Made by a program: the position numbers and the translations under genes
The notes under the pieces: model-generated
The model's database searches: none
Told to the model about the DNA's origin: nothing
The model's input: the letters and a program-made list of their open reading frames with translations, nothing else
In this document: positions 1 to 33,883 of the stretch, one piece after another
Layout of the letters: the number at the start of each line of letters is the position of its first letter
Position numbering within the stretch: position 1 is the stretch's first letter
From: a virus
Reading direction: 5' to 3' (one strand)
Virus record (IMG/VR): IMGVR_UViG_3300043403_000102
Coordinates: 1-64,000 of that record
DNA length: 64,000 bases

Positions 1-1020
1 GTCTGGTGGGGTCAGGCTCCGCACAACACAAACGGGTTCCAGCGTCAGGGTGGCGCCCCCAGGAGACCCCGTGCGGCCTTGCTGAAGATGCCTCCCCCCG
101 CAGACATAGTAATAAAACGGGCGGTCTTGTGTGGCGGGGGCTGCGGAACCGAAGGGGTCAGCCGACGTGTCTTCAACACACAACGGGAAGGGCCCAGAGA
201 ATACGGGGCCACCGCCGTGAAACGCGATGATCTCGCCGTCGATGATCACTTTGTTGACCGGGCGACCACGAGGGGGGAGAGGTGTTTGAAAGCCGATCCC
301 GCCGGTGTACCCAATCCAACACCCTTGGAGGATGCCGTGAGACGTGCTGCCATAGTTCTCAACCCGACGGAACACCTGGCGAGACGTTGCGAACTCGGCA
401 GAGCTAAGGGCGGCGGCGGGGATAAGAACCTCGAACAGTGTGACCTGGCCAACACCAGGAGGGGGAGCAAGGGGGCCCGGGTAAACCGTCCCCGATGGGG
501 TACCTGTGATGACTTGAATCGTGCACTGGGGGTCTTTTCGCTTGGGGACGATCTGAGCCGCCACCGTTCGCGCGATTGGGTCCAGCAAGATGTTCCTGCT
601 CTGCAGGTCCGTGTCGACCGTGCCGTCCGTCATGACAACGATGTCAATGCGGGGGTTGGTCGGGTCGGGGGCCGCAAAGGTCACCGTGCCCCCGCCGTAG
701 CGGAAAACCTTGTAGGAGCTGACCTCGTTGTTCAGGCCCGAGCCCGTGACGCCGTCGTCGAGCAATATCTGAAACTGCCCGAGCGTCATCTGGAACGCCC
801 CCGACGCTACCAGGGTGGGGAGCAGCGTCGCCCCAGGTCCCGGGCGATTGCCCTTGGTCGAGCCGAAGTCGGTAGCGTAATCCGCAGCATCATCCGAGCG
901 GGCCTCATCACGGGCCTGGTCGAGGATCTGGGTCTGGGAGACCGTCTCCATCCGAACCAAATCGGAGGACAGGACCTCTTCGCGCGCGTTTTCGATGACG
1001 ATGGAAAAATTGTCGGCCAT
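1..1020 (-). CDS. Tail fibre / baseplate-associated structural protein (partial, runs off left end)
   Basis: Not in the ORF track (no stop in window). Manual translation from ATG at 1020: MADNFSIVIENAREEVLSSDLVRMET...AAPDPTNPRIDIVV; PxPxNPRIDxV is typical of tail-fibre N-termini; lies after the baseplate genes. Confidence 0.65.
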   Translation of the reverse strand, partial: MADNFSIVIENAREEVLSSDLVRMETVSQTQILDQARDEARSDDAADYATDFGSTKGNRPGPGATLLPTLVASGAFQMTLGQFQILLDDGVTGSGLNNEVSSYKVFRYGGGTVTFAAPDPTNPRIDIVVMTDGTVDTDLQSRNILLDPIARTVAAQIVPKRKDPQCTIQVITGTPSGTVYPGPLAPPPGVGQVTLFEVLIPAAALSSAEFATSRQVFRRVENYGSTSHGILQGCWIGYTGGIGFQTPLPPRGRPVNKVIIDGEIIAFHGGGPVFSGPFPLCVEDTSADPFGSAAPATQDRPFYYYVCGGRHLQQGRTGSPGGATLTLEPVCVVRSLTPPD

Positions 1021-12469: not shown

Positions 12470-14269
12470 TTAGGCGGCAGGAGAAGCATCGACCGTGGGG
12501 CCGATTTGGGTTTGGAACACGATCGCATCCATGTCGCCGAGCATGCGCACTTTGACGATGATGGTGCGGATACCTACCGCCGTCAGCGCGGGGGTGTTCC
12601 CTGACTTAGGGTCGACAAGATACTGCTCAATCCTCTGAAGGCTCGGGTTGTTCGGGGACAGGAGCGAATCACAGAACGACTGAATCTCGCCCGTGATGGC
12701 GTCGACCCGTTCCGTGGTTCCGGGTTCCTTCTGGTAAGGGGCCGCGATGGCAGCCAAGGTGTCCTGCACAAAGTCAGCGAACCGCCGACGGTTGTCTTTA
12801 ACCCGCGTGGGGTAGGTCGTGGGGTTCGTGGCCAGCACGGAGGACTGGAACAACCAGCCCACGGCCCGATCCCGCCGCAAGGCCGAAAGCCCCTTGGCCT
12901 TGAACGCCACGTAGTCAGCCCGGCTGAACGGGTTGGCCACGAAGGCGGGTTCCATCTGCTGAATAGTCGTGAGCTGCGTGTTGGCGACACCGGACTCGAC
13001 TTCCTCGGCCAGGATGGAGAACAGCGAAGCCTTCCACCCTGCGGGGCTGATGAAGATGTTCCGCCCCAGCTCCGTCGAGTAAATGGCGGTGTAGGGGAAG
13101 TTCACCGAGATGCGGTCAGCATTCACGCCGCTGAACAACGCCGGGAGGGCCTTGGCGTTGGTCTTGGCCGTGGTGGCGTTGGAGCTGGACGCGGACACCG
13201 AGGGGTTGGCCGACACGATGGCGATGCGCCCACGGCCCACCTGAGAGGCATCCTGAGCGTTGGTCCAAAGGGCCCCGCGGATGGCGCCCTGAATGGTGGG
13301 GCTCAAGTCGTTGCGTGCGGCGAAGATCGCACCGATGTCGTCCGTGACCTCCTGCCCAGGGGCCGTCCCAGCGATGGCCGCAGGGTAAAGGCTGGCGAGC
13401 TTGGCGTTCAAGCTCACGGCCGCGGTGCCAGGAGCGAAGACCGCCGTGGCCGCACCCACCGCCGAAACGGTGCTGATGTTGGACGAAGAGATCGTGGACA
13501 GGAAGCCCGGGATCGCCGGGTCCAAGACCGTGTCGATGAACGCGATGGCCGCCGTGGTGCCCTTGACGAAGAACGCCGTGGCTCCGAGGGGACCGCCCGT
13601 GGCAACGCCCGACGTGTTGATGAGCCGGGTGAGAACGCCCGACGTCGCGTCCTGGGTCATGTCGAGGGTCGAACCCACGACTGCCGAGACCGGGACCACC
13701 GCGCCCGTGAGCGACGTGCCCTTGGGGATAACGATGTCCTGGGACAGAGAGATGATGACGGTGGCCGACCCAATGGCCGCGTCAGCGAACCGGGTACCCG
13801 CAGGCACCACGATCTCGATGCCCGTGATGAGGGCGTTGTCCGGGTCCAACTCAGCGGCGTTGACCGTGACTTCGAACGCCACGAACACCTTCGCGGTCCC
13901 GCCGTCCGTGGCCACCATGTCGGTGGGGACTCGCTGAAGCGTCAGCCGCCGGAACTGCCGGTTCTTAAGGTGCGCGATGCCGTTGCCCTCGAAGGACTGC
14001 CCGGATCCGTCCTGAACCTGGTTCGCGGTGTCGAGGCGATCTTGGGAAAGCTGGTCCGAGAACCCGCCGTAGGTGGCGGCGATCTCCCCCGAGCTGAAGA
14101 CCTCGGTGGGGGCGAATGGTCCCTTGAGGAACTCGGCCACCATGCACGTCGAGCCAGCGGAGACCCCGAGCTGAACGCTCGGACCCGTCTGGTCAACGAT
14201 GATGACCTGCTCCAGTTCAAGGATCTGGGGAAGGGTCGGGGTCTGCGTTACTCGGGTGACAAACGGCAT
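12470..14269 (-). CDS. Tail sheath protein
   Basis: 599 aa; AEFLKGPFAPTEV..FGGF-like N-terminus, NRRRFADFV and SGNTP..I...V..LGDMDAI C-terminal sheath motifs. Confidence 0.88.
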   Translation of the reverse strand: MPFVTRVTQTPTLPQILELEQVIIVDQTGPSVQLGVSAGSTCMVAEFLKGPFAPTEVFSSGEIAATYGGFSDQLSQDRLDTANQVQDGSGQSFEGNGIAHLKNRQFRRLTLQRVPTDMVATDGGTAKVFVAFEVTVNAAELDPDNALITGIEIVVPAGTRFADAAIGSATVIISLSQDIVIPKGTSLTGAVVPVSAVVGSTLDMTQDATSGVLTRLINTSGVATGGPLGATAFFVKGTTAAIAFIDTVLDPAIPGFLSTISSSNISTVSAVGAATAVFAPGTAAVSLNAKLASLYPAAIAGTAPGQEVTDDIGAIFAARNDLSPTIQGAIRGALWTNAQDASQVGRGRIAIVSANPSVSASSSNATTAKTNAKALPALFSGVNADRISVNFPYTAIYSTELGRNIFISPAGWKASLFSILAEEVESGVANTQLTTIQQMEPAFVANPFSRADYVAFKAKGLSALRRDRAVGWLFQSSVLATNPTTYPTRVKDNRRRFADFVQDTLAAIAAPYQKEPGTTERVDAITGEIQSFCDSLLSPNNPSLQRIEQYLVDPKSGNTPALTAVGIRTIIVKVRMLGDMDAIVFQTQIGPTVDASPAA

Positions 14270-17373: not shown

Positions 17374-18750
17374 TTACGTGCTGCCGTGAACGACAACCAC
17401 GGCGCGCTTGAACGCGGCGGGGCTGGAGAGCGCGGTGACGTCGGTTGGGATCGCCCAGTCGCCCGAGAACGACCAAGAGGCGCTCGTCTGCTGCTGCAGG
17501 CGGTCCAAAGGCGCGCGGAGGATCAAGCGGATCCGCTCGGTCATCACCTGGACCCCGCCGTTGACGACGGAGAACTCACCGATCTTACCCTGGATGCCCG
17601 CCTCGGAGATGTACCGGCTTTCGTCCAGGTACTTCTCTTCGACGGCCCCTTGGCCGGTGAAGATGGGGCGATGGATGGGGACCGCCGTGGCGTTCACCAA
17701 CTCGAAGCCCGTGGTGAAGCCGTTGGTCGGATCCTCGCTGACCGTGGCCAGCGTCGGAGACTCGGTGTTCTGGTAGAAGGTGCAGCCCAGCAACATCGCC
17801 ACCGCGAACCGGCGGTAGTGGATGTAATCCGGGATGGACTGGTTCAACCGCTGGAACTCGTTGTCGCCAAAGATCTGGCTCTCCGAGATCGGGTCGAAGT
17901 GACAGTGATAGGTCCCGTCCTCGTGGGTGGGGACGTTGTCGTAGCGGAGCTGCGCCACCGAGGCACGCACATCGGCCAACGTGAAGGCGTCGACCGCCGA
18001 GATGGCATCGACCGAGGTGCCGCCGCCCGCATAGACGAGGCGCGAACGGTTGTCCGCCAAGACCGACTCGCGACCCGCGAGAACGCCAACCGCAGGCGTC
18101 ACCGTCAGGGTGCCGCCGTGGATCTCGTCACCAGGGATGTCCGAGGTGAAGCCCGTGACCAGGCCGACGTAACCGCCAGTGATCGAGATCGCGATGGGGT
18201 TCGCAACCGACACCGGGGTGGGGCGACCGTTGAACAGCTTGCGAGTGAAGCCCGCGAGGTTCACGACAGGGACCGAAGTGCCCGCACCTACGCCGCCCGC
18301 CTTGACGACCGTGTTACCGGCCACGTAGCAGTTAAACAGCTTGTCGCGAACGACGCGGTTCAAGCTCTGCCCCGAGTGGAGGCCGAGCTGATGCATGTTG
18401 CGCAGGTACTGCGACGCAAGCGTCACGTAGCTGGTGGGCATGCTGGTGTCGATGGTGCTGGCCCACTGCTGAGCCGTGGCTTCCCACTGCTCGATGCCGT
18501 AGGAGACAGGCACCGGGTCGTTGCCCGGCTGCAGGGGGCGCGTGGTCGGGGTGATGAGCCCGGCACGCGTGAAGGTCTGGTTGGCGCCAAGGTTCACAGG
18601 CCACATCTCCGCCACGGCTTCCATGCGGAAAAGCAGCCGTGGGTACAGGGCATCTCGGAAGACGCGCTGAAGGGTGCGATCCTGGATGGACGCCACGACG
18701 CTTGCGTTGAAGCTCGTGACCGCGAGTGACGAATCGGGGAAGTTGGCCAT
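17374..18750 (-). CDS. Major capsid protein
   Basis: 458 aa after the scaffold, strong codon bias, SD (AGGAG) upstream; QLGLHSGQSLNRVVRD and VPTHEDGTYHCHFDP resemble HK97-fold N4-gp56-type capsids. Confidence 0.88.
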   Translation of the reverse strand: MANFPDSSLAVTSFNASVVASIQDRTLQRVFRDALYPRLLFRMEAVAEMWPVNLGANQTFTRAGLITPTTRPLQPGNDPVPVSYGIEQWEATAQQWASTIDTSMPTSYVTLASQYLRNMHQLGLHSGQSLNRVVRDKLFNCYVAGNTVVKAGGVGAGTSVPVVNLAGFTRKLFNGRPTPVSVANPIAISITGGYVGLVTGFTSDIPGDEIHGGTLTVTPAVGVLAGRESVLADNRSRLVYAGGGTSVDAISAVDAFTLADVRASVAQLRYDNVPTHEDGTYHCHFDPISESQIFGDNEFQRLNQSIPDYIHYRRFAVAMLLGCTFYQNTESPTLATVSEDPTNGFTTGFELVNATAVPIHRPIFTGQGAVEEKYLDESRYISEAGIQGKIGEFSVVNGGVQVMTERIRLILRAPLDRLQQQTSASWSFSGDWAIPTDVTALSSPAAFKRAVVVVHGST

Positions 18751-21876: not shown

Positions 21877-22803
21877 TCAGGGCAGTGTCAAGCCCTGCGG
21901 CACTTCGGCAGTCACGTCACCAGGCCCATCATCATCGGGCCTTGTGACCGAGCTGTTCTGCCATGAGGGGGACCAAGGGATCACGACAGCACGATCATTG
22001 GGCCTGCCCGGAGGCATCATAAAAGGCGGATACCCCTTCTTTCCAGGGGGTGGCGTGTACACGAAGGGATCTCCCATGTCCCTCACTTGCCCATGCAGTC
22101 TCTTCGAGTCGTCGCCCGTTCGGTCGTCGAAAGTCTCGATGAGCTTGCGCTGGAGCTTGGGGATCTCTTCTTGAACCTTCCTCATCGTGGCGTACTGCGT
22201 GACCCCGTAACTGTGGCTGAGCTCCGTTCGAACTATGCGTTCGGCACGCCACCGCTGGGCAGCGAACACTCCGTCGGTACCCACCACGCGGTCGATGGCC
22301 TCGTCGACACCCTCGCCCGAGATGATGGACTTAGCCATCTGCATCTTGACCTGCTCGACCACGGGCTTGGTGTAGTAGGCCTCGGACTTTTTATATCGAT
22401 TCAGCAGCGCGGGGTGAACGTCTTTATAGACGCCGCGAAGGACTGCAGCCTGCTCGACCTGTAACACGGGTGCGTGTCCGACGAACTGCTTTTCCAGGGC
22501 TTTTACCGAATAAACCGTGTGATGCGCACCCAGAGCACTGGCCTGTGCCCCGGTGGAATCGAGGTGCCCGACGAGCTTATTCCCGAACTGCTGGATGCCT
22601 GCTTTGAGCTGGAGCATGACAAGGCGGGCGTGATAGGCGCTGAAGGACTCGCCCATGCCCCGCTTGACGAGGGCACGCAGCTTGGCCTCCATCTCGGCGC
22701 GCACCTCCTCGTACATGGGGGCCATCTTTCGGATCCCCCTAAGCTCAATGATGCCCTTGATCTGGGCACGCTGCAGCTTCAGGACCTTGTCGAGTGCGGT
22801 CAC
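21877..22803 (-). CDS. Mu gpF/SPP1 gp7-like minor head protein
   Basis: RAERIVRTE, DDRT..LHGQ, PPGRPNDR motifs. Confidence 0.88.
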   Translation of the reverse strand: MTALDKVLKLQRAQIKGIIELRGIRKMAPMYEEVRAEMEAKLRALVKRGMGESFSAYHARLVMLQLKAGIQQFGNKLVGHLDSTGAQASALGAHHTVYSVKALEKQFVGHAPVLQVEQAAVLRGVYKDVHPALLNRYKKSEAYYTKPVVEQVKMQMAKSIISGEGVDEAIDRVVGTDGVFAAQRWRAERIVRTELSHSYGVTQYATMRKVQEEIPKLQRKLIETFDDRTGDDSKRLHGQVRDMGDPFVYTPPPGKKGYPPFMMPPGRPNDRAVVIPWSPSWQNSSVTRPDDDGPGDVTAEVPQGLTLP

Positions 22804-23654
22804 GGTTTCAGCTCTGGCGGCTTCTTTCCGTCTTCGATGGCGTTCTCACGCTTTATGCGCGCGATGTCGCTATCGCCAATCAACACCAGGGGGAGGGGAA
22901 GTACCCCGCGAGCGAAATGAATCTTCGTGATCTTCTTTTCATCGCCCGGTTTCACCCTTTCAAAACGATGAACTTCTACATACGCCTCGCCCAACGGGCT
23001 GCGCACCCAGAAATCAGGCGTGTACAATCTGCCGTCGCCGAGATCGAATTGCTGCGGCTCGTATTTCCAGGCGCACCCGAGCACATCCAGTCTTTCGGCA
23101 AACGCCACTTCCCACGTCGAGCGCATTTTCACGCCACCGTATTTTACCCAAACGATCGGCCGCACGGCCCCCCGCTTTTTCATCGCCTCCTTAAACACCG
23201 GACCGCGAACGAACTGACGCATGCGGTCTCGGCGCGCCTCATCCGACCAAATTCGGCGCGCCACCGCCGACCTAAGCTTTTGGTACTCGGGCGTGCGCAC
23301 GCTCGCCAGGTGCCTGTCGCGGTGCTCCGGGTTCTTCCACGAGCGCTGCGATCTTGTCCTTTGAGCATCTCGCGCCCCTGGTACTGCCCACTGGCTTTTG
23401 GCGCTTTCCGAATACGCCTTCGAGGCACCCGCTTTAGAGCACGCGGGGGAGCAGTATTTTGTGACTCCTAATCGACTGGGAAACACCCGAAACTCCGCAG
23501 CGCATTCAGAGCACGCCGCATAAACAACAGGCTTTAAAGCCCCCCCGCGCTTCCCCGCGTGGCAACAAGACGGAGAGCAATACCGATAGACGTGCGAGGG
23601 CCCTCTCTTCTGCGCGACCTTCCCGCCGCAAGATACGCAAGCCGTGTAGATCAT
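22800..23654 (-). CDS. Zn-finger PD-(D/E)XK putative homing endonuclease
   Basis: Two CxxC..YCSxxC repeats; MRSTWE..WKYEP..YTPDF..YVEVH. Confidence 0.75.
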   Translation of the reverse strand: MIYTACVSCGGKVAQKRGPSHVYRYCSPSCCHAGKRGGALKPVVYAACSECAAEFRVFPSRLGVTKYCSPACSKAGASKAYSESAKSQWAVPGARDAQRTRSQRSWKNPEHRDRHLASVRTPEYQKLRSAVARRIWSDEARRDRMRQFVRGPVFKEAMKKRGAVRPIVWVKYGGVKMRSTWEVAFAERLDVLGCAWKYEPQQFDLGDGRLYTPDFWVRSPLGEAYVEVHRFERVKPGDEKKITKIHFARGVLPLPLVLIGDSDIARIKRENAIEDGKKPPELKP

Positions 23655-24082
23655 TTGGTCATCGGCGGGGGAGATTTATCGGCATCCAGGGCGTCTTCTC
23701 GCGCATGGCAGAGGTCATGGTGGCGTGCACACAAGACGTGAAGGCTGTCGAGGTCATCGCCTTTGGGCTTCTTGGCCTGGGCCTTGAGCCACTTGTCGGC
23801 CTCGGGATCTTCGGCAATCTCTTTCTTGTGTCCGGCGATGTGGTCGAGGTCGAGGTTTTCCTTCGGGGCCTTGCAGCCGGGGATCTGACAGGTCCACTTG
23901 TCCCGCTGGAACACGGCGAGGGCCAGCTTAGGGTCGAGACCTCCCTTGCCGTTGTTCTTGAGGGTGGCCCCTGCGGCCTTGGCCTCGGCTTGAATCTGCC
24001 CGACGGTGTCGAGCTTCTCGGCCAGGCGAAAGGCCGTGTTCTTGAGGTGCCTGGCTGCCCAGGGAGGAAGTACGCGCGGCAT
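23651..24082 (-). CDS. HNH endonuclease
   Basis: VFQRDKWTCQIPGC..LDLDH..LHVLCARHH. Confidence 0.8.
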   Translation of the reverse strand: MPRVLPPWAARHLKNTAFRLAEKLDTVGQIQAEAKAAGATLKNNGKGGLDPKLALAVFQRDKWTCQIPGCKAPKENLDLDHIAGHKKEIAEDPEADKWLKAQAKKPKGDDLDSLHVLCARHHDLCHAREDALDADKSPPPMTK

Positions 24083-24589: not shown

Positions 24590-24980
24590 TGAGGGTTCCT
24601 CCGGTGATGGTGGTGACGAGCGCTTGCCAGTCTGGGGGTTCGGCCAGGTTGTCCACGTAGACGTCGGCCACGGGCTTCCCGGGGGCCTGCCAAACGACAT
24701 CAAAGAGGCTCCACAACTGCGCGGCTTTCAGGGCCGTGCGCATCTCGTTGAACCAGGCCCACTGGGTTTCGACCCGCGCGGGGACGGCCCCGTAGGACCA
24801 GAACCGCTGTTCCTCGTCGAGGAGCTGGGGCGAGTCGTCGCAGGGGTTGCATCGACATGACCACAGGATCAGCCGACACCCGGCCGTGTGGAGGGCCTTG
24901 ATGGCGGCGACCGCGGCGGGCTTGGGCACGCCGTTCGAGGCGATGGTGCCGTCGAAGTCTATGGCGAGCGTGGACATCAC
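24579..24980 (-). CDS. HAD-superfamily hydrolase-like protein
   Basis: AIDFDGTI, ILWSCR, KPVADVYVDN. Confidence 0.85.
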   Translation of the reverse strand: MMSTLAIDFDGTIASNGVPKPAAVAAIKALHTAGCRLILWSCRCNPCDDSPQLLDEEQRFWSYGAVPARVETQWAWFNEMRTALKAAQLWSLFDVVWQAPGKPVADVYVDNLAEPPDWQALVTTITGGTLNGL

Positions 24981-26635
24981 AGCGGTGCGTCCATGCCCCC
25001 GAAGCCGCCCCCGGTCATGCTGTCCATCTCGGCCTTCTGCTGCTCGGCGATCCTGGCTTCCATCCCGGCGACGTCGCGCACGTCGAACACGGGGGCCGCG
25101 CTCTTAACGGCGGTCTCCTGGTCGATGAGGCCCCCGGCCTTGGCCGCGACGATGTTGCCGATTACCTTCTGGTCGTCGTCGACGGTGGGCTGGAAGTACG
25201 GCCCCCATTGAAGCGCCAGATACCCACCGGGCCCGAGGGTCTGCTGGCCCATGGTACCGTCGGGGAGCTTGCGAGGCGGGAGCTTGAAGGCGTTCTTCAG
25301 GACGCGGGGGGCCCCCGTCGCTGCGTCGGGTTCCAGGGGAAACTCTTGGCCTAGGAGATGACGGGCCATCTTCTCGACGATGAGCAGCAACGGAATCATG
25401 CCGAGGTCGCCGTATTGGGCTCGCAGGTCGTCGGACTTCTCGAGCATGGGTGCATAGATGTATTCGATGGCCTTGGCCGACTGGGCGGCCCCCGAGATGG
25501 TTTGGGGGTCGACCATCACGCACCGAACGACGTCGAGGGTGTTCTGCTTCAACCGGTCGAAAAACTCCTGCCCGGCCTTGACGCCAGAGCCCGTGATCTC
25601 GAGAAAGTTGGCGGTGCCACCGGGGCCTACGTTAAGGGCGCCCGCGCTACCGGTGCGCACGCTGCCGCCTTGGGAGGCCATGACCTTGGGATCCACGCCC
25701 AGCACCAGCGTGGGGTCCAGGTTCGCCAGGATGGCCTGGTTGATCTGACTGATGATGCGGTCCATCGTGTCGAAGTTCTGCCAGGACCCGTGGCAGTCCG
25801 GGTGACCGTCTTCGCTCTCGGTGACGGGGAGGTTCTGAATCCAAACCCCGGGAAAGAACCCGAGGTTGTGTTCGACTTGGTCTTCGACCTCCCACTCGAA
25901 CGAGGCATCGTCTGTGAGCTGCACGGGCTTGTAGACGATGTCGTGCTCGGAGGTGATGATGCGGCGGTAGAGGAAGTCCACGATCTCGGTGCCGTCGACG
26001 TTGCCCTGCTTATCGTAGTGGTCGACCTCGACGGGGTACCGATATGACTTCAGCACCGCGGCGGGCGTGAAGGTGCGGCGGTCCTTCCACATGATCTGAA
26101 GGTGCTTGGGGTTATGGACCTCAAGGCTGAATTTCCCTTCGCGAACGTGGGCCGTGACCAGGACGGAGCCGCAGGACCCGCCGATGGTGCGGGCCTCGCG
26201 CATCTTGGCGGTGAAGCGCATCTGCTCCATAGCGGCAAGCAAGAACTGCTCGGTGTCGGGGTCACCCTCGACCGTGAGCTTGGGCTTGCGCGTCTCCCCG
26301 AACAGGAGGCCCGTGAACCTATCGACGACGGCCTTGCACAGGTGGTACGGGGCGGTGGGACGTTTGCCACGCACGCTCATGGACATGGCGGGCTGGGTAA
26401 ACCCGTTGGGTACTAAGATCTCAGGGGACACCGTTTCGAGGTTGTCCGCATTCATCCCCCACCAGTCGAGCTTCAGGTGGTTGTACTGGGTCGTGTCATA
26501 GAACGCCTGGTAGCGTTCGATTTGCTTGAAGCGCCTCGTCTCCCCAAGGACGGCGTTCGACTGCAGCACCTCGACGAGTTGGAAGTTCCGCTTGATGGGC
26601 GTTGTGGGGGCTGCCCCGCCGACGAGAGTGCTCAT
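24977..26635 (-). CDS. Portal protein (SPP1 gp6-like)
   Basis: 552 aa; HNLGFFP, SAKAIEYIY.PMLEK, LQWGPYF, IDQETAV; position before gpF. Confidence 0.9.
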   Translation of the reverse strand: MSTLVGGAAPTTPIKRNFQLVEVLQSNAVLGETRRFKQIERYQAFYDTTQYNHLKLDWWGMNADNLETVSPEILVPNGFTQPAMSMSVRGKRPTAPYHLCKAVVDRFTGLLFGETRKPKLTVEGDPDTEQFLLAAMEQMRFTAKMREARTIGGSCGSVLVTAHVREGKFSLEVHNPKHLQIMWKDRRTFTPAAVLKSYRYPVEVDHYDKQGNVDGTEIVDFLYRRIITSEHDIVYKPVQLTDDASFEWEVEDQVEHNLGFFPGVWIQNLPVTESEDGHPDCHGSWQNFDTMDRIISQINQAILANLDPTLVLGVDPKVMASQGGSVRTGSAGALNVGPGGTANFLEITGSGVKAGQEFFDRLKQNTLDVVRCVMVDPQTISGAAQSAKAIEYIYAPMLEKSDDLRAQYGDLGMIPLLLIVEKMARHLLGQEFPLEPDAATGAPRVLKNAFKLPPRKLPDGTMGQQTLGPGGYLALQWGPYFQPTVDDDQKVIGNIVAAKAGGLIDQETAVKSAAPVFDVRDVAGMEARIAEQQKAEMDSMTGGGFGGMDAPL

Positions 26636-27474: not shown

Positions 27475-27758
27475 CAGATCTTGCTCCTGTCGACGGTGGG
27501 GCCTTCCATCTCGCGACGGCGGGCCATGATCTCGGGCTCGGTTGAAACGCCAGGGGGAACGGCGAACATCACGCGGTACCCCGTAAGGGCCCTCACGTCG
27601 GCGTGGTACTGGGCGGCCGATGGGTCGGAGGCCTCCACGGTCACGCGCTTGAAGTCCCCGGGCTTGGCGGCCAAGTCATTGACGTCGGCCTTGATGAGAA
27701 CGACGTCGAACATCTCACTGTGCTCGGGGAAGTTGGTCGGGGTTTCTTTGGTTGTCAT
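27474..27758 (-). CDS. Hypothetical protein
   Basis: Start MTTKET coupled to the methyltransferase stop. Confidence 0.55.
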   Translation of the reverse strand: MTTKETPTNFPEHSEMFDVVLIKADVNDLAAKPGDFKRVTVEASDPSAAQYHADVRALTGYRVMFAVPPGVSTEPEIMARRREMEGPTVDRSKI

Positions 27759-29032
27759 GGTGATTCCTTTACAGCGACCTGGCCGGTGAACGCTTCCCAA
27801 CGAGCAAGGGCCGCGTCAACATAGGTGGGATTTAACTCCATCGCAAAGCAACGACGATCCAGCTTTTCAGCAGCGATGATCTGCGACCCAGACCCAGAGA
27901 AGGGTTCGTAGCAAATATCACCCAGGCGGGTGTGGTTGACCATCGCCCGCGTGAACACCTCGACGGGCTTTTGCGTTGGGTGCACACGCTGCCCGTTCGA
28001 AACCTCGTGCGTGATATTCCAGACTGTTCCCTGGTTTCGCTCCCCGTAAAACGGCGGGCGCTCCCCCTTGATCCAACCATAAAGGCAGGGCTCGTGCTGC
28101 CAATGGTAGTCCGAGGCTCCAAAGATGATCGAGGGCTTCGCCCAGATAATCTGGTTGTGGATCAACATCCCGACATCCAGACACGCCTTAATGAACACGG
28201 GAGCCTGAGCAGATGAATGCCAAATGTAGATGGCCGCCTTTTGAGCCAGGGCATAGGCCAATGCCGTCGTCAGGAACCCCGCGAGCATCCGGTCAAGCTC
28301 AACCACGTCACGCCCGTCACCCGCGATCAAATCCCATTTACCTTCCGTCCCTTTAAGATCGGACCGCACGGTGTCTGTGTACGCCACACCATAGGGTGGA
28401 TCGGTGGCCATCAGCAACGCAGTCTTCCCACCCATAAGCCGCGTAACATCAGCATGGTTCGTCGAATCACCACACAGGATTCGATGCTTGCCCAGAACCC
28501 ACAGGTCGCCTACCTGAGACCTTGGCGTCACATTATCTGGTACTTCGTCAGCCCCCACAGGGGGTGCGGAAACATCACCAAGCCCCTTCAACATTGTGGT
28601 CAGGTCCTCTGGCATGTAACCCAGCCCTACAAACCCGTCGGCCACAGTCGACAGGTCCTTCAGCATTTCGGAGAGCATCTTGTCGTCCCAGCCGCCGATC
28701 TCGGAGATTCGGTTGTCGGCAATGAGGAACGCCTCGGCCTCTGCATCAGAGGCGAAAGACACGCCCCGAGTTACAGGTACAAGCCATTCGCCGTCGGGGG
28801 CGACAGTTATTCTGTCGGGAGCTGCCTTGCCGTCGGCCTTCATCTTCGCCAGCGTCTCCAGGCGCCCGTGCCCTGCCACAAGACGCCCGGTGGCCTCATT
28901 CAGGGTCAAGGGCTGCACGAAGCCGAATCGCCCAATGCTCTCGTCAAGCTTGTCGATCCTGTGTGTCTTCGGGTTCCTGGGAGCCTTCAAGATCGCCGTC
29001 AGCGGTGTGTACTCAATGCGAATGGATGACAT
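27755..29032 (-). CDS. ParB-N domain + N4C/N6A DNA methyltransferase
   Basis: N-terminal RNPKTH..SI.RFGF..AGHGRL..ADNR; TDPPYG, HPTQKP, EPFSGSGS. Confidence 0.92.
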   Translation of the reverse strand: MSSIRIEYTPLTAILKAPRNPKTHRIDKLDESIGRFGFVQPLTLNEATGRLVAGHGRLETLAKMKADGKAAPDRITVAPDGEWLVPVTRGVSFASDAEAEAFLIADNRISEIGGWDDKMLSEMLKDLSTVADGFVGLGYMPEDLTTMLKGLGDVSAPPVGADEVPDNVTPRSQVGDLWVLGKHRILCGDSTNHADVTRLMGGKTALLMATDPPYGVAYTDTVRSDLKGTEGKWDLIAGDGRDVVELDRMLAGFLTTALAYALAQKAAIYIWHSSAQAPVFIKACLDVGMLIHNQIIWAKPSIIFGASDYHWQHEPCLYGWIKGERPPFYGERNQGTVWNITHEVSNGQRVHPTQKPVEVFTRAMVNHTRLGDICYEPFSGSGSQIIAAEKLDRRCFAMELNPTYVDAALARWEAFTGQVAVKESP

Positions 29033-29274: not shown

Positions 29275-30048
29275 TCAACGTACATTGATGTTGGCGAAGG
29301 ACGGTCCCGTGTTGCTCGCCTGAGCAGCCCCGCCCCAACGGGACATCGCCTCGCGGCAGAACCACATTGCCATGACGGTGTCGGCCTGCCCGCTCATGGG
29401 GTAGTTGTTGACCTCGGTGGTCCAGACGCACCAGCCGCACTGACAGGTCGGGGGGTGGCCCTCGAACTCGTCGGCGGGGATGACCCAGGCCTTGTTGGCG
29501 AACTCGACTTCTAGGCTGGGCAGGCCGACGTCGACCTTGTGCTTGTTGGCCCCGGTGGTGAAGCTTTCGATCTTGTACCAGAACGAGGCATCGACGCCGC
29601 CGACGTTCCGAATCCAGTCGATGATGGACTGCTGGTATCCGTTGTTCTCGACCATGATGTGCCGCACGTTCGGGTAGCTGGCGTGCATCTGGGCCAGGTT
29701 CCGGGCGGTCTCGGGGCTGGTCCAGGCACCCCTTCGGATCTCCAGAGGGTAGCGGCGCTGGGTCGTGGGGTCGATAGACGCGGCAAAGATGACGTTACCG
29801 GCCCGCGTGGCCCCTGCCAAGTCGACACCCATGAACGTGGGCCAGCCGCTGCGCTGGATATTCCCCAGGGCCACGCCGTGGCTGTAGCAGTTCTTGAAGC
29901 TCGGGAACAGCCGCTCCTCGTCCGTGAAGGCGCGCATCTGGAACCCACGGGCAAAGCTGCGGGGGTTCTCCTGCTGCTCCCTGCGAAGGCGGTCGGCGGG
30001 CCAATGCTCCCAAGGAGCCAGGGCAGGCAGCCGGTGCGTGTGGTTCAT
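29275..30048 (-). CDS. terL: Terminase large subunit, C-terminal RNase H-like nuclease half
   Basis: PWEHWP..F...FQM linker, FMGVDLA, MVENNGYQ, YP....DTVMAMWF; own ATG coupled to the upstream stop. Confidence 0.85.
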   Translation of the reverse strand: MNHTHRLPALAPWEHWPADRLRREQQENPRSFARGFQMRAFTDEERLFPSFKNCYSHGVALGNIQRSGWPTFMGVDLAGATRAGNVIFAASIDPTTQRRYPLEIRRGAWTSPETARNLAQMHASYPNVRHIMVENNGYQQSIIDWIRNVGGVDASFWYKIESFTTGANKHKVDVGLPSLEVEFANKAWVIPADEFEGHPPTCQCGWCVWTTEVNNYPMSGQADTVMAMWFCREAMSRWGGAAQASNTGPSFANINVR

Positions 30049-30287
30049 TCCGTCAGTGTAACAACTGTCGTGACCGATGCCCGGAACTGCAGGAGCAACG
30101 CATCGATGAAGGGCTTCCCGTCTTTGGGAGCCACGACACCTCCTGCAGCCATGCTGTAAATCCCGTCATCCATGTCAGCGGAGAACTCAGGGTCATTGTA
30201 GGTCGCTTCGACCGTTCCGTCCTTCAGCAGCTCGAAGGAAGCCAGGCACTCGGGGGACTCGCCAACGGTCATCACGTTGTAGGTCAT
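30045..30287 (-). CDS. Small acidic hypothetical protein
   Basis: 80 aa, translationally coupled at both ends. Confidence 0.6.
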   Translation of the reverse strand: MTYNVMTVGESPECLASFELLKDGTVEATYNDPEFSADMDDGIYSMAAGGVVAPKDGKPFIDALLLQFRASVTTVVTLTE

Positions 30288-32794
30288 TTAGTTCTTACCG
30301 TCCCTTCTTCAGAATCTGACCCGCTCCAGGGAACAAGTTTTGAGTATGGAATGTCTTTAGGGCGCGGGCTCCAGCTTGGCGCCACTTCTGCCATCACGGC
30401 TTGCACCGTGCGCTGCGTGTCCTTGCCCAAGTCCAGCTCGGGGGACTCGTGAGAGAACTTGAAGCTGCCCTCTTCGCCGTGAAACTCGACCATGCGGGGG
30501 TTGGCCTTAAGGGCCTCCAGACGAACGATGACCCCGTGGATCGCTTCGGGCTCCAGGCCGTGAGCCTTGAGGGTACTGGCAATCTGGTGGGTGTCCGCAT
30601 GCTCGATCATCTTGGATACCTCCGGGTGTAGCGGGCCCTCGACGTGGCGGTCCACACGGGGCAACTTCGCCATATGGGAGGGGACGATGGAGGTGGGGAA
30701 CGCCAACCCGTGGTCTATGAGCAGGGGCGTGCGGGTCTTACCCTCGTAACTGGGCATCCAGTTCCGGCTGTGCCGATCGGTGTTGCCGATAATGAGATCG
30801 AAGGCGCGCATCTTTTGGAACCCGACGGGGTCGTCTTGGATTCCCTCCTGGGCTCTCGCGTGGGCGTTCGCGGTCAAGGTCTTCTCCACGTCCGCGGGCT
30901 TCACACCGAATTTAGCCGCGTTGGCGTTGTAGCGTTCCTGTAGGGCCGCCGTTAATTCCTTCGGTAATCCCTTCGGCTGGTGGGCCGCCTGGACCGAGCC
31001 AATGCCTTCGGGGAGGTCCTCGCGCACCACGGTCGGGGGCACCATGTGCCCGAGGCCGAGGACTTGGGAAAGGGCGTAGGCAGCGACCTCCCGCTTGTAG
31101 CTGGTACCCGGGGTCACGTCAGGACGCATACGCGGCTCCCCCGTGGCAGGCTTGTAGTAGGCCTGAGAGCCGTCAGGGAAGTGTAACCGTTGGGTAACGG
31201 ACACCCCCTTCTCCCCTTCCTTAAGGGGCTCGGCCTTTACGGGGGCCACGAACTCTAGCTTCGCGATTCCTTTGTCGATGACGTGGTCGGAGTCCTTCAC
31301 ATCCTCCTCACTCACCCAGTAGTGCCACTGATGGGACTTGTCCCCTATCTTGCGCTCGCGCTCGACCAGCACGAGGTTCTCACGCCCTGCCATGCGTGCG
31401 ACCCCCGGCATTGTCACGCTAGGCACGTCGCCAGGTGTGGTGGTCTCGACGACAGAGCGCACAGGCTCTGCATGCACGTGAACCGCGGCCCCTATACGCA
31501 CGAGGCGTGACTCGACGACAACCCAGTTCATTCCTCGGAACACCGCCGCAAGGTACAGGTCTTTGCGAGTGCCATAGTCCGCGGCGTAGGCGTGCTCCCA
31601 GCAGTCGATGGCCAGCAACACTGGGCACCCCGCCATGACGCCGTCGGCATGCTTCTCGACGAGGTTCACCCGAGGGCGCCGTTCGACAAGATCCCAAACC
31701 ACCAGCACCCACCCATCGGTCGAACCGCAGGCCGCCCTTAGGTCCCGCGTGAAGTTCTCCCAAGACCCCCAGGACCTCTCGACCGCTTGAAGAAATACAG
31801 GCAAGGGGTGGCCGGGCACCGACGTGAACTGCTCGAAGTAGAACTCGTGCAGGGTCACGGCATTGTAGGCGCTGGGCTCAGACCGCAGGAGCTCGCCGTG
31901 CTCGGCCCACCCCATGCCTGAAAAAGGTTGCACCGCGCGGGGCATCCCGAGCCGATCGGCCACGGTCCCCCGCAGCGTCGTGTACGGGTCGGGCCTGCCT
32001 TGATAAATGTTCGTGGCGGCCTTGCCCCCGAGGGACTGCATGATGATGTCGACCGCTTCGAGCTTGGCCAGGGCCTCGGGCCACGCCGCATACTCGGCAC
32101 GCCAGTCAGGGGCCCCGCTATCGAGCCACCTCCCGAAGGCCTCGGCCCAGGCCTCCTCGGGGTGCTTCTGGGCGTAGTGAGCGGGGGCATAGGTCAGGTA
32201 TTCGACGAAGCCCCGGCTGCTGGTGTTGGGCTCTAGGGTGTCGTCGCGCTGGGGGTATGGGATCGTCGGATCTCCGAACGCCGCCAACCACAGCGGGTTC
32301 GCGCCCAATTCGTACCCGAAGAACACCGCGTGACCCAGCTCATGACGAAGGCAGCGCAGCACCTGGTCAAAGGCATAGGCGAACTCCTGGGTCCGCGAGG
32401 CCAGGCGCCACAGTTCGGCCGTGGCCAGGAACCAGGGGACGTTGATTCTGACGCTCTTGTCCGAGGTCCAGAAGTCTTCCGTCCCCAGGTACCAGGTGGG
32501 CCAGAACGCAGGGGCAGGGGTCTTGTACGTGAACTCGAGCTGTACCAGGGCCAGGGCGTCTTTCAGCGGCCCCACCGCGGGGGCGATCGAAAGCTCCAGG
32601 TGCCTGACGGGGAACGCCAGCAGGGTGCTGGTTGCGGGCCCCCTGGCGGGTTCGGCCGTCAGGGGGTAGGAAGTCTGAATGGCGTTCAGACGGTCGACCG
32701 CACGTCCGTAAAGGGACAAGTGCTGGTCGAGCATGCGGTCACTGATTCCCGTCAGCGCCCCTCGTAGGTAGGAGAAGTCCCTTGCGATTCTCAC
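30284..32794 (-). CDS. Fusion: Fe/Mn superoxide dismutase + nested Zn metallopeptidase + PI3/4-kinase-like domain
   Basis: DQHLSLY / LHEFYF / IDCWEHAY; RHELGH..HPEEAWAE; YKP..GE, REVAAY, GNTDRH.RN, LIDHGLAF. Confidence 0.85.
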   Translation of the reverse strand: MRIARDFSYLRGALTGISDRMLDQHLSLYGRAVDRLNAIQTSYPLTAEPARGPATSTLLAFPVRHLELSIAPAVGPLKDALALVQLEFTYKTPAPAFWPTWYLGTEDFWTSDKSVRINVPWFLATAELWRLASRTQEFAYAFDQVLRCLRHELGHAVFFGYELGANPLWLAAFGDPTIPYPQRDDTLEPNTSSRGFVEYLTYAPAHYAQKHPEEAWAEAFGRWLDSGAPDWRAEYAAWPEALAKLEAVDIIMQSLGGKAATNIYQGRPDPYTTLRGTVADRLGMPRAVQPFSGMGWAEHGELLRSEPSAYNAVTLHEFYFEQFTSVPGHPLPVFLQAVERSWGSWENFTRDLRAACGSTDGWVLVVWDLVERRPRVNLVEKHADGVMAGCPVLLAIDCWEHAYAADYGTRKDLYLAAVFRGMNWVVVESRLVRIGAAVHVHAEPVRSVVETTTPGDVPSVTMPGVARMAGRENLVLVERERKIGDKSHQWHYWVSEEDVKDSDHVIDKGIAKLEFVAPVKAEPLKEGEKGVSVTQRLHFPDGSQAYYKPATGEPRMRPDVTPGTSYKREVAAYALSQVLGLGHMVPPTVVREDLPEGIGSVQAAHQPKGLPKELTAALQERYNANAAKFGVKPADVEKTLTANAHARAQEGIQDDPVGFQKMRAFDLIIGNTDRHSRNWMPSYEGKTRTPLLIDHGLAFPTSIVPSHMAKLPRVDRHVEGPLHPEVSKMIEHADTHQIASTLKAHGLEPEAIHGVIVRLEALKANPRMVEFHGEEGSFKFSHESPELDLGKDTQRTVQAVMAEVAPSWSPRPKDIPYSKLVPWSGSDSEEGTVRTK

Positions 32795-32807: not shown

Positions 32808-33512
32808 TCAGACTTTGGAGGGCTTGGGCCACAGGATGCGTCGGGTACGACTACCGCTGGCCTGGCTCATGCGGGCCTCGCCACGGCTTAGGAACAGGAC
32901 CTCACCGTCGGGGGCCTCGGCAATCTGATAGCCGCCTTGGGCGATCTCGAAGGGCTCCAGCTCGTGCGTGTCCAGGTACGTCGTGCGGCCGTCGTGGGGC
33001 TTCAAGATGGGGAGGCCGAACCACTTAGGCAGCACGAAGTCACTCACGGGGATGATGCGGGTCTGCCCGAGCAGCTCGACCTCAATGCCGTATTCGTCTC
33101 GCTGAACCGGGTCACCAAGTTCGACGTAGTACGTGCGTCCCTTGGGCCCGTCGACCTTGCGGTCGAGCCTGGGGTTGCCGAACATCTCAAGGGCCTCATG
33201 CGACAGGGTCACGCTCGGGTGCTTCGACTGGCTCATGTCCACGAGACCGAAAACCCGCGACCCGAGCTGCGAATGATAGCCCGCGCTGTCGGCGTTGCCG
33301 TCGTCGTCGACGATGCCCAGGATGGCGGCCTGGTCCGCAGGGATACGCTCGGCGTGGCCATAGAAGGCCATGCCGGGGGTAACGCCCCAAAGCGGGGCCA
33401 CATGCTCGCGGAGCTGCTTGGCAACGGCCGCAACCCACCACGCCACCTCATCGTCTTTGGCGACGGTCGAGTGGTTATAAACGGCGATGTGCGTGATGGG
33501 TTGGTCGGTCAC
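32808..33512 (-). CDS. Putative zincin-like metalloprotein
   Basis: AGYH, TLSHEALE, VELGDPV, SDFVLPKWF. Confidence 0.6.
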   Translation of the reverse strand: MTDQPITHIAVYNHSTVAKDDEVAWWVAAVAKQLREHVAPLWGVTPGMAFYGHAERIPADQAAILGIVDDDGNADSAGYHSQLGSRVFGLVDMSQSKHPSVTLSHEALEMFGNPRLDRKVDGPKGRTYYVELGDPVQRDEYGIEVELLGQTRIIPVSDFVLPKWFGLPILKPHDGRTTYLDTHELEPFEIAQGGYQIAEAPDGEVLFLSRGEARMSQASGSRTRRILWPKPSKV

Positions 33513-33883
33513 TTGAACGTGTAGCCCTTCTCGGACAGGAACATCTTCGCGTGGGAGGCCGCCGCGCTGCTGACGGTGTCGGCCTTGTTGGCATCGGCAG
33601 CCTCGCCGAACTGCTTACCCGAGGACTTAACAACACACGCGATCACGTCCTCGGTGATGCCGACGGCGGGGTTGATGAGGCCGATGAGGCAGCCAGTCCA
33701 GCCGCCCACCCCCACGAGGCAATCATTGATCTTGGGAATGAGGGGGATCCCAAAGTCGCGTACGGCCTGGGTCGAGCAGTCGATGATGCCGGGGTGTCCG
33801 GGGCCAGGCATCGGCTGGGGACAGCCCGCCACCGCACTGAGTCCAAGAAGAACGGCAAGGATCCGACGGATGATGTTGTTCAT
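33509..33883 (-). CDS. Lipoprotein
   Basis: Signal peptide with lipobox VAGC. Confidence 0.7.
   Translation of the reverse strand: MNNIIRRILAVLLGLSAVAGCPQPMPGPGHPGIIDCSTQAVRDFGIPLIPKINDCLVGVGGWTGCLIGLINPAVGITEDVIACVVKSSGKQFGEAADANKADTVSSAAASHAKMFLSEKGYTFK

Follow-up and report, generated by a model that had tools for sequence, protein, structure and literature searches.

A phage superoxide dismutase with a nested zincin, a linked atypical kinase and a small predicted kinase partner

Introduction

This study was concerned with a gene on the minus strand (30284..32794) of a 64,000-nucleotide stretch of DNA from an uncultured tailed phage. The stretch comprises positions 1-64,000 of the IMG/VR virus record IMGVR_UViG_3300043403_000102 and is called the window throughout. 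The gene encodes a protein of 836 amino acid residues in which a zincin metallopeptidase is nested inside the fold of an Fe/Mn superoxide dismutase (SOD), and this SOD::zincin module is followed by a linker and an atypical kinase. The gene directly downstream encodes an 80-residue protein, here called the partner, which co-occurs with the kinase and is modelled in its active-site cleft. The reading that we favour, with moderate confidence, is that the 836-residue protein is a modular polyvalent effector, probably carried in the virion, which modifies the host and whose kinase is silenced by the dedicated partner. The first minutes of an infection are decided by phage proteins that enter the cell along with the DNA, and only a few of these proteins have been studied.

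Architecture of the 836-residue protein

The gene is one unbroken open reading frame (ORF) with a GTG start, and its third-position G+C content of 0.80 is like that of the neighbouring genes. A database gene call (P0002) begins 20 residues downstream of this start, and the longer form was preferred because residues 6-20 are conserved in homologues. The parts follow one another in the order SOD::zincin module, linker, kinase. An earlier, sequence-only reading of the window had proposed a fusion of a SOD, a metallopeptidase nested in it and a PI3/4-kinase-like domain at 30284-32794, and every motif that it listed was located. The four SOD metal ligands it read from DQH, LHE and DCWEH are H25, H316, D397 and H401. 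The insert of about 250 residues that it placed between the first two of these histidines, with HELGH and HPEEAWAE, corresponds to a folded insert at about residues 52-285. Its ENLVLVER..HYWV motif is found at residues 470-494 as GRENLVLVER...HYWV, and the kinase residues it described as intact (K, E, DRH..N and DHG) are K548, E569, D673-R-H..N678 and D694-H-G.

An assembly or frameshift artefact was considered as the source of the fusion and was rejected. Two independent proteins, P0033 (882 residues, 46% identical, aligned over 3-814) and P0034 (1054 residues, 43% identical), contain all three parts, and since they share the triple architecture the fusion is not an assembly error. Polyvalent proteins are recognized by two or more unrelated effector-type domains in one polypeptide of a phage or plasmid, by domain shuffling and commonly by a zincin hub, and the protein fits this description with its three enzymatic folds in one phage ORF.

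The SOD fold and the nested zincin

In the structural model, the insert is a zincin domain spliced in at the tip of the SOD N-terminal helical hairpin, with the residue sets of both metal sites kept. About 290 residues separate the first two histidine ligands, H25 and H316. The C-terminal SOD family of Pfam, Sod_Fe_C (PF02777), matched residues 335-430 with an E-value of 4e-16 and 59.3 bits, compared with a curated cut-off of 20.9. The N-terminal family, Sod_Fe_N (PF00081), had no Pfam match to residues 1-65 or to the whole protein, yet the model aligns from residue 1 with the Fe-SOD of Aquifex (1coj), the structure that was also ranked first when phmmer was run against the PDB (E 6.8e-18). 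The AlphaFold model of residues 1-470 was built with an alignment of 46 family members (A2) and had a mean predicted local distance difference test (pLDDT) score of 87 and a predicted template modelling (pTM) score of 0.75. Its SOD C-terminal stretch (298-433) had pLDDT values mostly above 90. The VIA fold search, which is independent of sequence order, aligned the model with 1coj at Z 24.6 and a root mean square deviation (rmsd) of 2.5 Å over 196 of the 211 chain residues (model range 1..439). Because this alignment spans model residues 1-439, helix 1 (19-41) belongs to a complete SOD fold that encloses the insert. Thus, the fold closes around the insert in the model, which was the check that the sequence-only reading had suggested.

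In an alignment with stand-alone SODs of about 200 residues (A4), helix 1 and helix 2 are separated by a single clean gap where the insert opens, and each of the 17 rows has H25, H316, D397, E400 and H401. All four metal ligands are present in 42 of the 46 relatives in A2, and the outer-sphere residue H382 aligns with a histidine of 1coj. The SOD part is of the Aquifex, or SodFM3-4, kind with a C-terminal water-coordinating histidine, following the classification as set out in parts of PMC10172142.

The zincin motifs are HELGH at residues 151-155 and HPEEAWAE at residues 211-218. Pfam Peptidase_Mx (PF15887) matched the 836-residue protein at E 5e-4 and 20.0 bits, below the cut-off of 27. Relatives reached 28-32 bits, above the cut-off, and by way of these relatives the zincin can be placed in Peptidase_Mx at the profile level. 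Model residues ~52-262 matched the folds of anthrax lethal factor (1yqy; Z 8.9, 159 residues), the Pro-Pro endopeptidase PPEP-3 (Z 8.0) and a "putative zinc-binding metallo-peptidase" of Bacteroides (4l7a; Z 6.8), values that are middling by the guidance of the tool. All 46 relatives retain H151, E152, H155, H211, E214 and E218, which are the only absolutely invariant set in the alignment. By these 46-row counts the zincin is the invariant core of the module, and the SOD metal site is under selection, but the catalytic surroundings of this site are relaxed.

Stand-alone zincins of this family were found in at least 570 stretches of cellular genomes by a scan of genome contigs. The SOD frame was absent from the best 80 of these relatives, all of which cover just residues ~44-290. 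In a FastTree analysis of 204 zincin domains, 57 of 57 SOD-bearing forms fell in one clade of 74 rows (support 96), which also contained 13 viral forms with a HAD-type domain and four others and was apart from the 79 cellular sequences. The SOD label needs four changes within this clade because HAD-zincin forms nest inside it. The tree was made by FastTree only and is unrooted.

The SOD::zincin family, its tails and the linker

A word-based search recovered 31 clusters of the family, and an exhaustive search added more, including P0033 and P0034. In total, 57 distinct sequences with the SOD::zincin unit were found, and the family is a phage-only one. No close relative was detected by tblastn in isolated phages and plasmids, where the only matches were to plain SODs and extended over no more than 29% of the query. 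In BFVD, a set of viral predicted structures, two matches were obtained at E ≤0.001. Both are SODs of uncultured phages and aligned over the SOD part alone, and one of them, 501 residues long, may itself have the nested architecture.

About half of the family stops after the SOD domain, at ~460 residues. The remaining members carry different tails. For example, Pfam identified a DRAT-like ADP-ribosyltransferase tail in P0003, P0004, P0007, P0009 and L001 (rescanned and confirmed for P0003 and L001). P0016 carries a tail like eukaryotic-type topoisomerase I (topoisomerase-IB-like), and P0005, P0006 and P0010 have a tail containing HExxH, a second zincin. The kinase tail is present in the window protein (P0001), P0033 and P0034.

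Between module and tail lies a family linker of ~45 residues with the pattern G-R-E-G-L-V-x-V-E-R-E-V...Y-W-V, and of the 16 family proteins with more than 600 residues, 14 were matched by a hidden Markov model (HMM) of this linker. The linker is not confined to proteins with a SOD. In two HAD-zincin proteins without a SOD (L032 and L037), it is followed by ADPrib_exo_Tox (Pfam E 1e-25 and 6e-27). A distribution of this kind is typical of an adaptor that forms part of exchangeable cargo cassettes. The linker was also seen at the head, or near the N-terminus, of separate ORFs (L001:5330-6133, L001:14414-15427, L025:9302-10732 and L026:5550-6980; the L025 and L026 ORF has 476 residues) in phages which also have the zincin gene. 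The C-terminal parts of these ORFs had no family match, and the ORFs are possible spare cargo cassettes.

The kinase domain

By its model, the C-terminal domain is an intact atypical kinase which is closest to type II phosphatidylinositol 4-kinase (PI4KII). The AlphaFold model of residues 489-836 had a pLDDT of 83.6 and a pTM of 0.83, and its best VIA match was PI4KIIalpha (4pla; Z 19.5, rmsd 3.3, 243 residues aligned, 20% identity). Fam20 (Z 14.6), CtkA (Z 12.3), HipT (7ab3; Z 10.6) and HipA (Z 10.4) followed. Foldseek agreed on PI4KII (E 1.6e-8), as did a profile of 40 relatives searched against the PDB, which found PI4K2A (E 6.7e-19). This match and, for the SOD part, those to Sod_Fe_C and to 1coj in sequence and fold are far stronger than chance would give. 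The nearest NCBIfam entry was the uncharacterized actinobacterial SCO1664 family (TIGR03843; E 4.5e-18). Pfam PI3_PI4_kinase scored 23-24.7 bits on the 836-residue protein, below the cut-off of 27.1, and was matched at E ≤0.001 by 39 of 40 and 60 of 62 relatives. In addition, K548, E569, D666, D673 and D694 are invariant in 40 relatives and N678 is at least 90% conserved. The Pfam families HipA_C (E 0.099) and HipA_2 (E 0.21) did not place the domain with HipA or HipT.

The kinase is present on at least 107 IMG/VR contigs. The 79 kinase loci examined there gave 62 non-redundant viral kinase ORFs, and in these Pfam identified Phage_Mu_F in 23 and portal families in four, with single cases of ART-PolyVal, Zeta_toxin, ATLF and others. 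In a wider protein set, 11 of 40 kinase proteins had Phage_Mu_F. By these fusion counts, phage proteins associated with the head commonly carry the kinase as a cargo. Its substrate in a bacterial host is probably a protein rather than phosphatidylinositol.

The partner protein

The 80-residue gene (30045-30287) overlaps the kinase stop and the start of the terminase-nuclease gene by four nucleotides each (ATGA). The sequence-only reading of the fusion did not mention this gene. A jackhmmer search from the partner against all ORFs of at least 40 residues in 120 loci gave 75 matches, every one of them in a locus with the kinase, and the 40 loci that have no kinase gave no match. A homologue was adjacent downstream of the kinase in 64 of 79 loci, 17 of them with the four-nucleotide overlap. 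Adjacency was defined as a homologue start between -300 and +350 nucleotides from the kinase stop on the same strand, with the kinase ORF identified by HMM, and some of the loci are near-duplicates. The partner family is highly diverged, with 20% mean column identity. L64 is nevertheless found in 32 of 32 rows, and the family shows the motif Y/F-x-G-S, where 25 of 32 rows have Ser or Thr. The partner had no Pfam, PHROG or NCBIfam family, and an Atlas feature search with it found nothing.

A complex of the kinase fragment (residues 18-330 of the fragment; alignment A3) with the partner (alignment A5) was modelled. The interaction score (ipSAE) was 0.85, compared with 0.00 for the best of three controls, and three runs shared at least 82% of contacts with a partner pLDDT of at least 89. 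In calibration, 58 of 80 solved complexes attained the mark for this score, as did 2 of 110 mismatched pairs, counts which hold just roughly here because alignments built in the analysis were used. At the modelled interface, partner residues 30-41 and 65-78 touch K548, 675-678, 693-694 and 696 of the kinase. This model supports a position of the partner in the active-site cleft.

In several loci (L049, L050, L053, L056, L057, L064-L066, L074, L077 and L078), a partner-like segment forms the N-terminus of a longer downstream ORF of 412-1884 residues. These long ORFs may be true fusions or over-extended calls of a simple ORF finder.

Genomic context

The window has a G+C content of ~62% and nearly all of its genes are on the minus strand. 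The 836-residue gene lies inside the packaging and head gene cluster. Its features and the recognized genes of the window are listed in Table 1.

Table 1. Positions of the protein's parts and of neighbouring genes in the window.
Feature	Position	Strand	Basis or remark
Whole SOD::zincin-linker-kinase gene, 836 residues	30284..32794	(-)	ORF list and translation
SOD N-terminal segment and helix 1, residues 1-47; H25, Y29	32654..32794	(-)	Model helix 19-41; 1coj alignment from residue 1
Nested zincin metallopeptidase, residues 52-285; H151-E-x-x-H155, H211, E214, E218	31940..32641	(-)	Peptidase_Mx and fold
SOD helix 2 and C-terminal alpha/beta domain, residues 298-433; H316, D397, H401, outer-sphere H382	31496..31903	(-)	Pfam Sod_Fe_C; 1coj alignment
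Linker/adaptor motif, residues 467-513; G-R-E-x-L-V-x-V-E-R-E...Y-W-V	31256..31396	(-)	Linker HMM
Atypical kinase, residues ~530-805; K548, E569, D666, D673-R-H, N678, D694-H-G	30380..31207	(-)	Model, fold, profile
80-residue partner gene	30045..30287	(-)	Junctions read from sequence
Stand-alone terminase nuclease-domain gene	29275-30048	(-)	phrog_38 positions 489-628 of 760; translationally coupled, downstream of the 80-residue gene
ParB-methyltransferase	27755-29032		PHROGs
Portal	24977-26635		PHROGs
HNH-endonuclease-like gene	23651-24082	(-)	PHROG E 4e-7; between portal and MuF
MuF-type head-morphogenesis protein, separate gene	21877-22803		PHROGs
Major head protein	17374-18750		PHROGs
Tail sheath	12470-14269		PHROGs
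Baseplate and tail proteins			PHROGs

The ORFs of 40 IMG/VR loci were compared with the genes of the window. Of the 16 loci L001-L016, 15 have the SOD::zincin gene upstream of a stand-alone terminase-nuclease gene (L002 has no terminase match). The two genes are directly adjacent in several loci (e.g. L001 and L009-L012), and elsewhere they are 0.5-4 kb apart or other genes intervene. The nuclease gene is then followed by a ParB-methylase, two small genes and the portal, which matches the window. Loci L017-L038 have an intact terminase and a portal, followed immediately by a protein of 378-418 residues that joins a HAD-type phosphatase-like domain (NCBIfam BT0820 family, E 1e-9; phrog_1238) to the same zincin (e.g. 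L017:7569-8705).

The large terminase of the window is divided over two minus-strand genes which are 13.5 kb apart, the nuclease gene of Table 1 and 43565-44425 (-). The latter is the ATPase half and matched positions 266-471 of 760 in phrog_38 (E 4e-37) and positions 18-182 of NCBIfam termin_lrg_T7. Stand-alone genes for the nuclease half recur in L001-L016, and in L007 the two halves are adjacent overlapping ORFs. Homologues of the HNH-like gene are found at the equivalent place in 12 related loci. Upstream of the 836-residue gene are 32808-33512 (-) and 33509-33883 (-), neither of which had a family match. The product of 33509-33883 has, as judged by eye, an N-terminus like that of a signal peptide or lipoprotein. 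The 234-residue product of 32808-33512 was considered as a part of the module and rejected, as its homologue (70% identity) occurs only in L001 and is not adjacent there.

Discussion

We propose that three parts recombine independently among related phages: a carrier module, a linker or adaptor of ~45 residues and a cargo. The carrier is the zincin spliced into the hairpin tip of an Aquifex-type (SodFM3/4-like) Fe/Mn SOD fold, and the linker marks the start of the exchangeable cargo. In the window protein this cargo is the PI4KII-homologous kinase, which most likely phosphorylates a host protein. While the phage is being produced, the 80-residue partner most likely silences the kinase inside the cell in the manner of an immunity protein or a pseudosubstrate-type inhibitor. 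Because the gene is coupled to the terminase nuclease gene in the packaging cluster, and because the kinase is fused to MuF and portal proteins in other phages, we infer that the protein would be made late with the packaging genes, packed into the capsid and delivered together with the DNA when the next host is infected. A cut by the zincin in or close to the linker may then free the cargo. The architecture, its recurrence, the exchange of tails, the intact catalytic residues and the co-occurrence and modelled place of the partner are what the data show, and this course of late expression, packaging, cleavage and host phosphorylation is our inference. The SOD site could be catalytic or structural in this scheme. 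The suggestion of a polyvalent host-takeover effector in the sequence-only reading fits the swappable tails, the same kinase on MuF proteins and the location in the packaging cluster.

A more elaborate form of this proposal is that the SOD::zincin module is a metal- or redox-gated delivery module, in which nesting couples the two metal centres, the zincin is kept inactive in the capsid or the producer cell, and a cut in the linker only after entry frees the kinase from a co-packaged plug, so that a host pathway is rewired. We regard this form as doubtful. If it were true, it would be a phage-borne, self-activating pro-effector system, parallel to the MuF toxins yet unrelated to them.

Several observations weigh against the virion-carried effector reading. 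By the adjacency definition above, 15 of the 79 kinase loci are without an adjacent partner. The complex score is a measure of model confidence and does not tell whether the partner is an inhibitor, an activator or a substrate of the kinase, and the partner had no sequence match to solved chains in the PDB up to E 10 (best 0.26). The linker was modelled without confidence, with low pLDDT at the ends of both models. In addition, the 836-residue protein had no Pfam match to Phage_Mu_F, and MuF is a separate gene in the window, so that capsid loading is left without an identified handle. The SOD part is also less uniform than its ligands suggest. The four A2 rows without the full ligand set are one N-terminally truncated sequence, P0041 and P0048, which are without all four ligands, and P0049, which is without one, and the last three have kept the zincin. 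The outer-sphere histidine is kept in just 25 of 46 relatives. The stand-alone SODs of A4 show G-Y-V at the gateway position (P0146 is an exception), and we take the position aligned with this tyrosine to be gateway Tyr34 in E. coli/human numbering. To our knowledge this tyrosine is near-universal in Fe/Mn SODs. It corresponds to Ala32 in the 836-residue protein, and in the family the residue is Tyr in 18, Ala in 20 and another in 8 of 46.

Alternative explanations were weighed against the same evidence. The kinase and the 80-residue protein could be a toxin and its antitoxin, that is, a toxin-immunity pair of the addiction, exclusion or abortive type which acts inside the producing cell and is never packaged, with the SOD::zincin module regulating or degrading the antitoxin. 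The tight coupling of the two genes and the modelled plug in the active site would be expected of such a pair, and the kinase fold has a likeness to HipT and HipA. The Atlas model of the partner is also weakly like the HipA N-terminal cluster (template modelling score 0.51, row 10 of the Atlas structure list), which is a weak lead only and is a further point against the reading that we favour. However, the viral kinase is mostly found at the C-terminus of large head-associated proteins, unlike free-standing toxin-antitoxin systems, the gene lies in a terminase/portal cluster in L001-L038, and PI4KII is far nearer in fold and profile than HipA. We consider a toxin-immunity pair unlikely. A morphogenetic role is quite improbable in our view. 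The zincin would then be a protease for head assembly or processing, or a dead structural protein, the SOD a scaffold for oligomerization and the tails passengers. Such a role agrees with the fixed place of the zincin gene beside the portal or terminase in 38 IMG/VR loci and with the unique invariance of the zincin residues. SOD folds do serve as non-catalytic subunits in mitoribosomes and in plastid RNA polymerase, and such subunits were among the fold matches of the SOD::zincin model. PHROGs also recognized no prohead protease among the scanned head genes, which is not evidence of absence. However, the short forms adjoin highly variable effector-type tails that are typical of conflict proteins, the stand-alone relatives of the zincin in cellular genomes require no phage context, and the prohead proteases known to us are serine enzymes.

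The sequence-only reading had also raised an anti-oxidative role. As an auxiliary gene, the protein would be an active Fe/Mn SOD that lowers superoxide during infection, with the zincin and kinase being secondary. The ligands are kept here and in most relatives, H382 has its counterpart in 1coj, and stand-alone phage SODs exist. The part of the review PMC7019647 on chlorovirus PBCV-1 describes a SOD that is late-expressed, packaged in the virion and associated with lower superoxide, and such a precedent leaves room for an antioxidant role, although the PBCV-1 enzyme is a Cu/Zn SOD of a different fold. The evidence from the family is nevertheless against this role, which was not borne out and is very unlikely. 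The gateway position is Ala here and variable in the family, and three members have lost ligands while keeping the zincin. The SOD-less HAD-zincin forms nest among the SOD-bearing forms in the FastTree analysis, which suggests that the SOD part is dispensable. Lastly, the insert sits at the tip of the hairpin formed by the two N-terminal helices, which set the tetrameric SodFM3/4 enzymes apart from dimeric SODs according to the portions of Sendra et al. 2023 (PMC10172142) that deal with these groups.

The SOD::zincin unit is a rare natural case of domain nesting with both metal sites kept, in a conserved carrier found only in phages, and its portable linker marks exchangeable cargoes. The kinase family is otherwise known from eukaryotic membrane traffic and is here paired with a small protein modelled in its active site. 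If kinase and partner behave as predicted, they would be a new toxin/inhibitor pair and provide a handle on the host target. Metal or redox chemistry would be linked to the release of an effector if the SOD site proves to be active or regulatory.

Comparison with known systems

Polyvalent and polymorphic effectors of phages are already known as a theme, and the finding falls within it. The statement of the sequence-only reading that no described protein has this architecture stands for the literature searched, but the SOD::zincin unit itself is a recurrent metagenomic family. The SOD::zincin carrier, the portable linker and the PI4KII-like kinase with a plug were not described in the literature searched (main texts). 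In particular, no paper was found on a SOD with an inserted metallopeptidase domain, and nothing relevant was found on SOD-bearing phage polyvalent proteins, on phage PI4K- or HipA-like kinases with MuF or on SCO1664, TIGR03843 and PF15887, apart from one paper that mentions Peptidase_MX merely as a clan.

Each part of the protein has a nearest known counterpart. The SOD part shares the fold, the four ligands, the C-terminal water-coordinating histidine and the LHE.YF and D..EHAY motifs with the Aquifex pyrophilus Fe-SOD (1coj) and the SodFM3 and SodFM4 groups, as these are described in parts of PMC10172142. Unlike these enzymes, the 836-residue protein has an insert of ~230 residues between the N-terminal helices, Ala at the gateway position and extra fused domains. 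The kinase shares a homologous catalytic core, with its Lys, DRHxxN and DxG, with type II PI 4-kinases (4pla, 4hnd) and with the SCO1664 family (TIGR03843). PI4KII carries a palmitoylated cysteine cluster, whereas no cysteine cluster was seen in residues 489-836, and the identity to PI4KII is only 20%. The kinase and partner resemble HipT-HipS of the HipBST system, where HipS, a small separate protein, neutralizes the atypical kinase HipT by reaching into its active site; the corresponding position of our partner is a modelled one. Unlike HipS, the partner is encoded downstream and has no sequence match, the kinase belongs to a large phage protein of which it forms the tail, and the fold likeness to HipT (7ab3) is distant.

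As a whole, the protein is most like two classes of phage effectors. The polyvalent proteins (Iyer et al. 2017, PMC5512222, main text) likewise combine several unrelated enzymatic domains in one phage polypeptide, with zincins as the commonest hub, ADP-ribosyltransferase and kinase cargoes and cassette-like orphan ORFs nearby, and for them release with the DNA and autoproteolytic release have been proposed. Their kinase is a truncated Ser/Thr/Tyr-type kinase and is not PI4KII-like. The parts of the paper on these proteins that were consulted describe domains arranged like beads on a string and not the nesting of one domain in another, and the word "superoxide" is absent from the main text. The MuF polymorphic toxins (Jamet et al. 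2017, PMC5576092, main text) likewise join a variable toxin domain at the C-terminus to a conserved module at the N-terminus, with a small gene immediately downstream. The word "kinase" is absent from that main text. The SPP1 protein gp7, a MuF protein, binds the portal and is present in the capsid according to the same text. In the 836-residue protein, the SOD::zincin module replaces the MuF domain (PF04233), and the variable tail and the small adjacent gene of the MuF toxins are both found, with a putative immunity function for the small gene. The two systems are further linked by the kinase, which belongs to the same family that is fused to MuF itself in the viral ORFs counted above.

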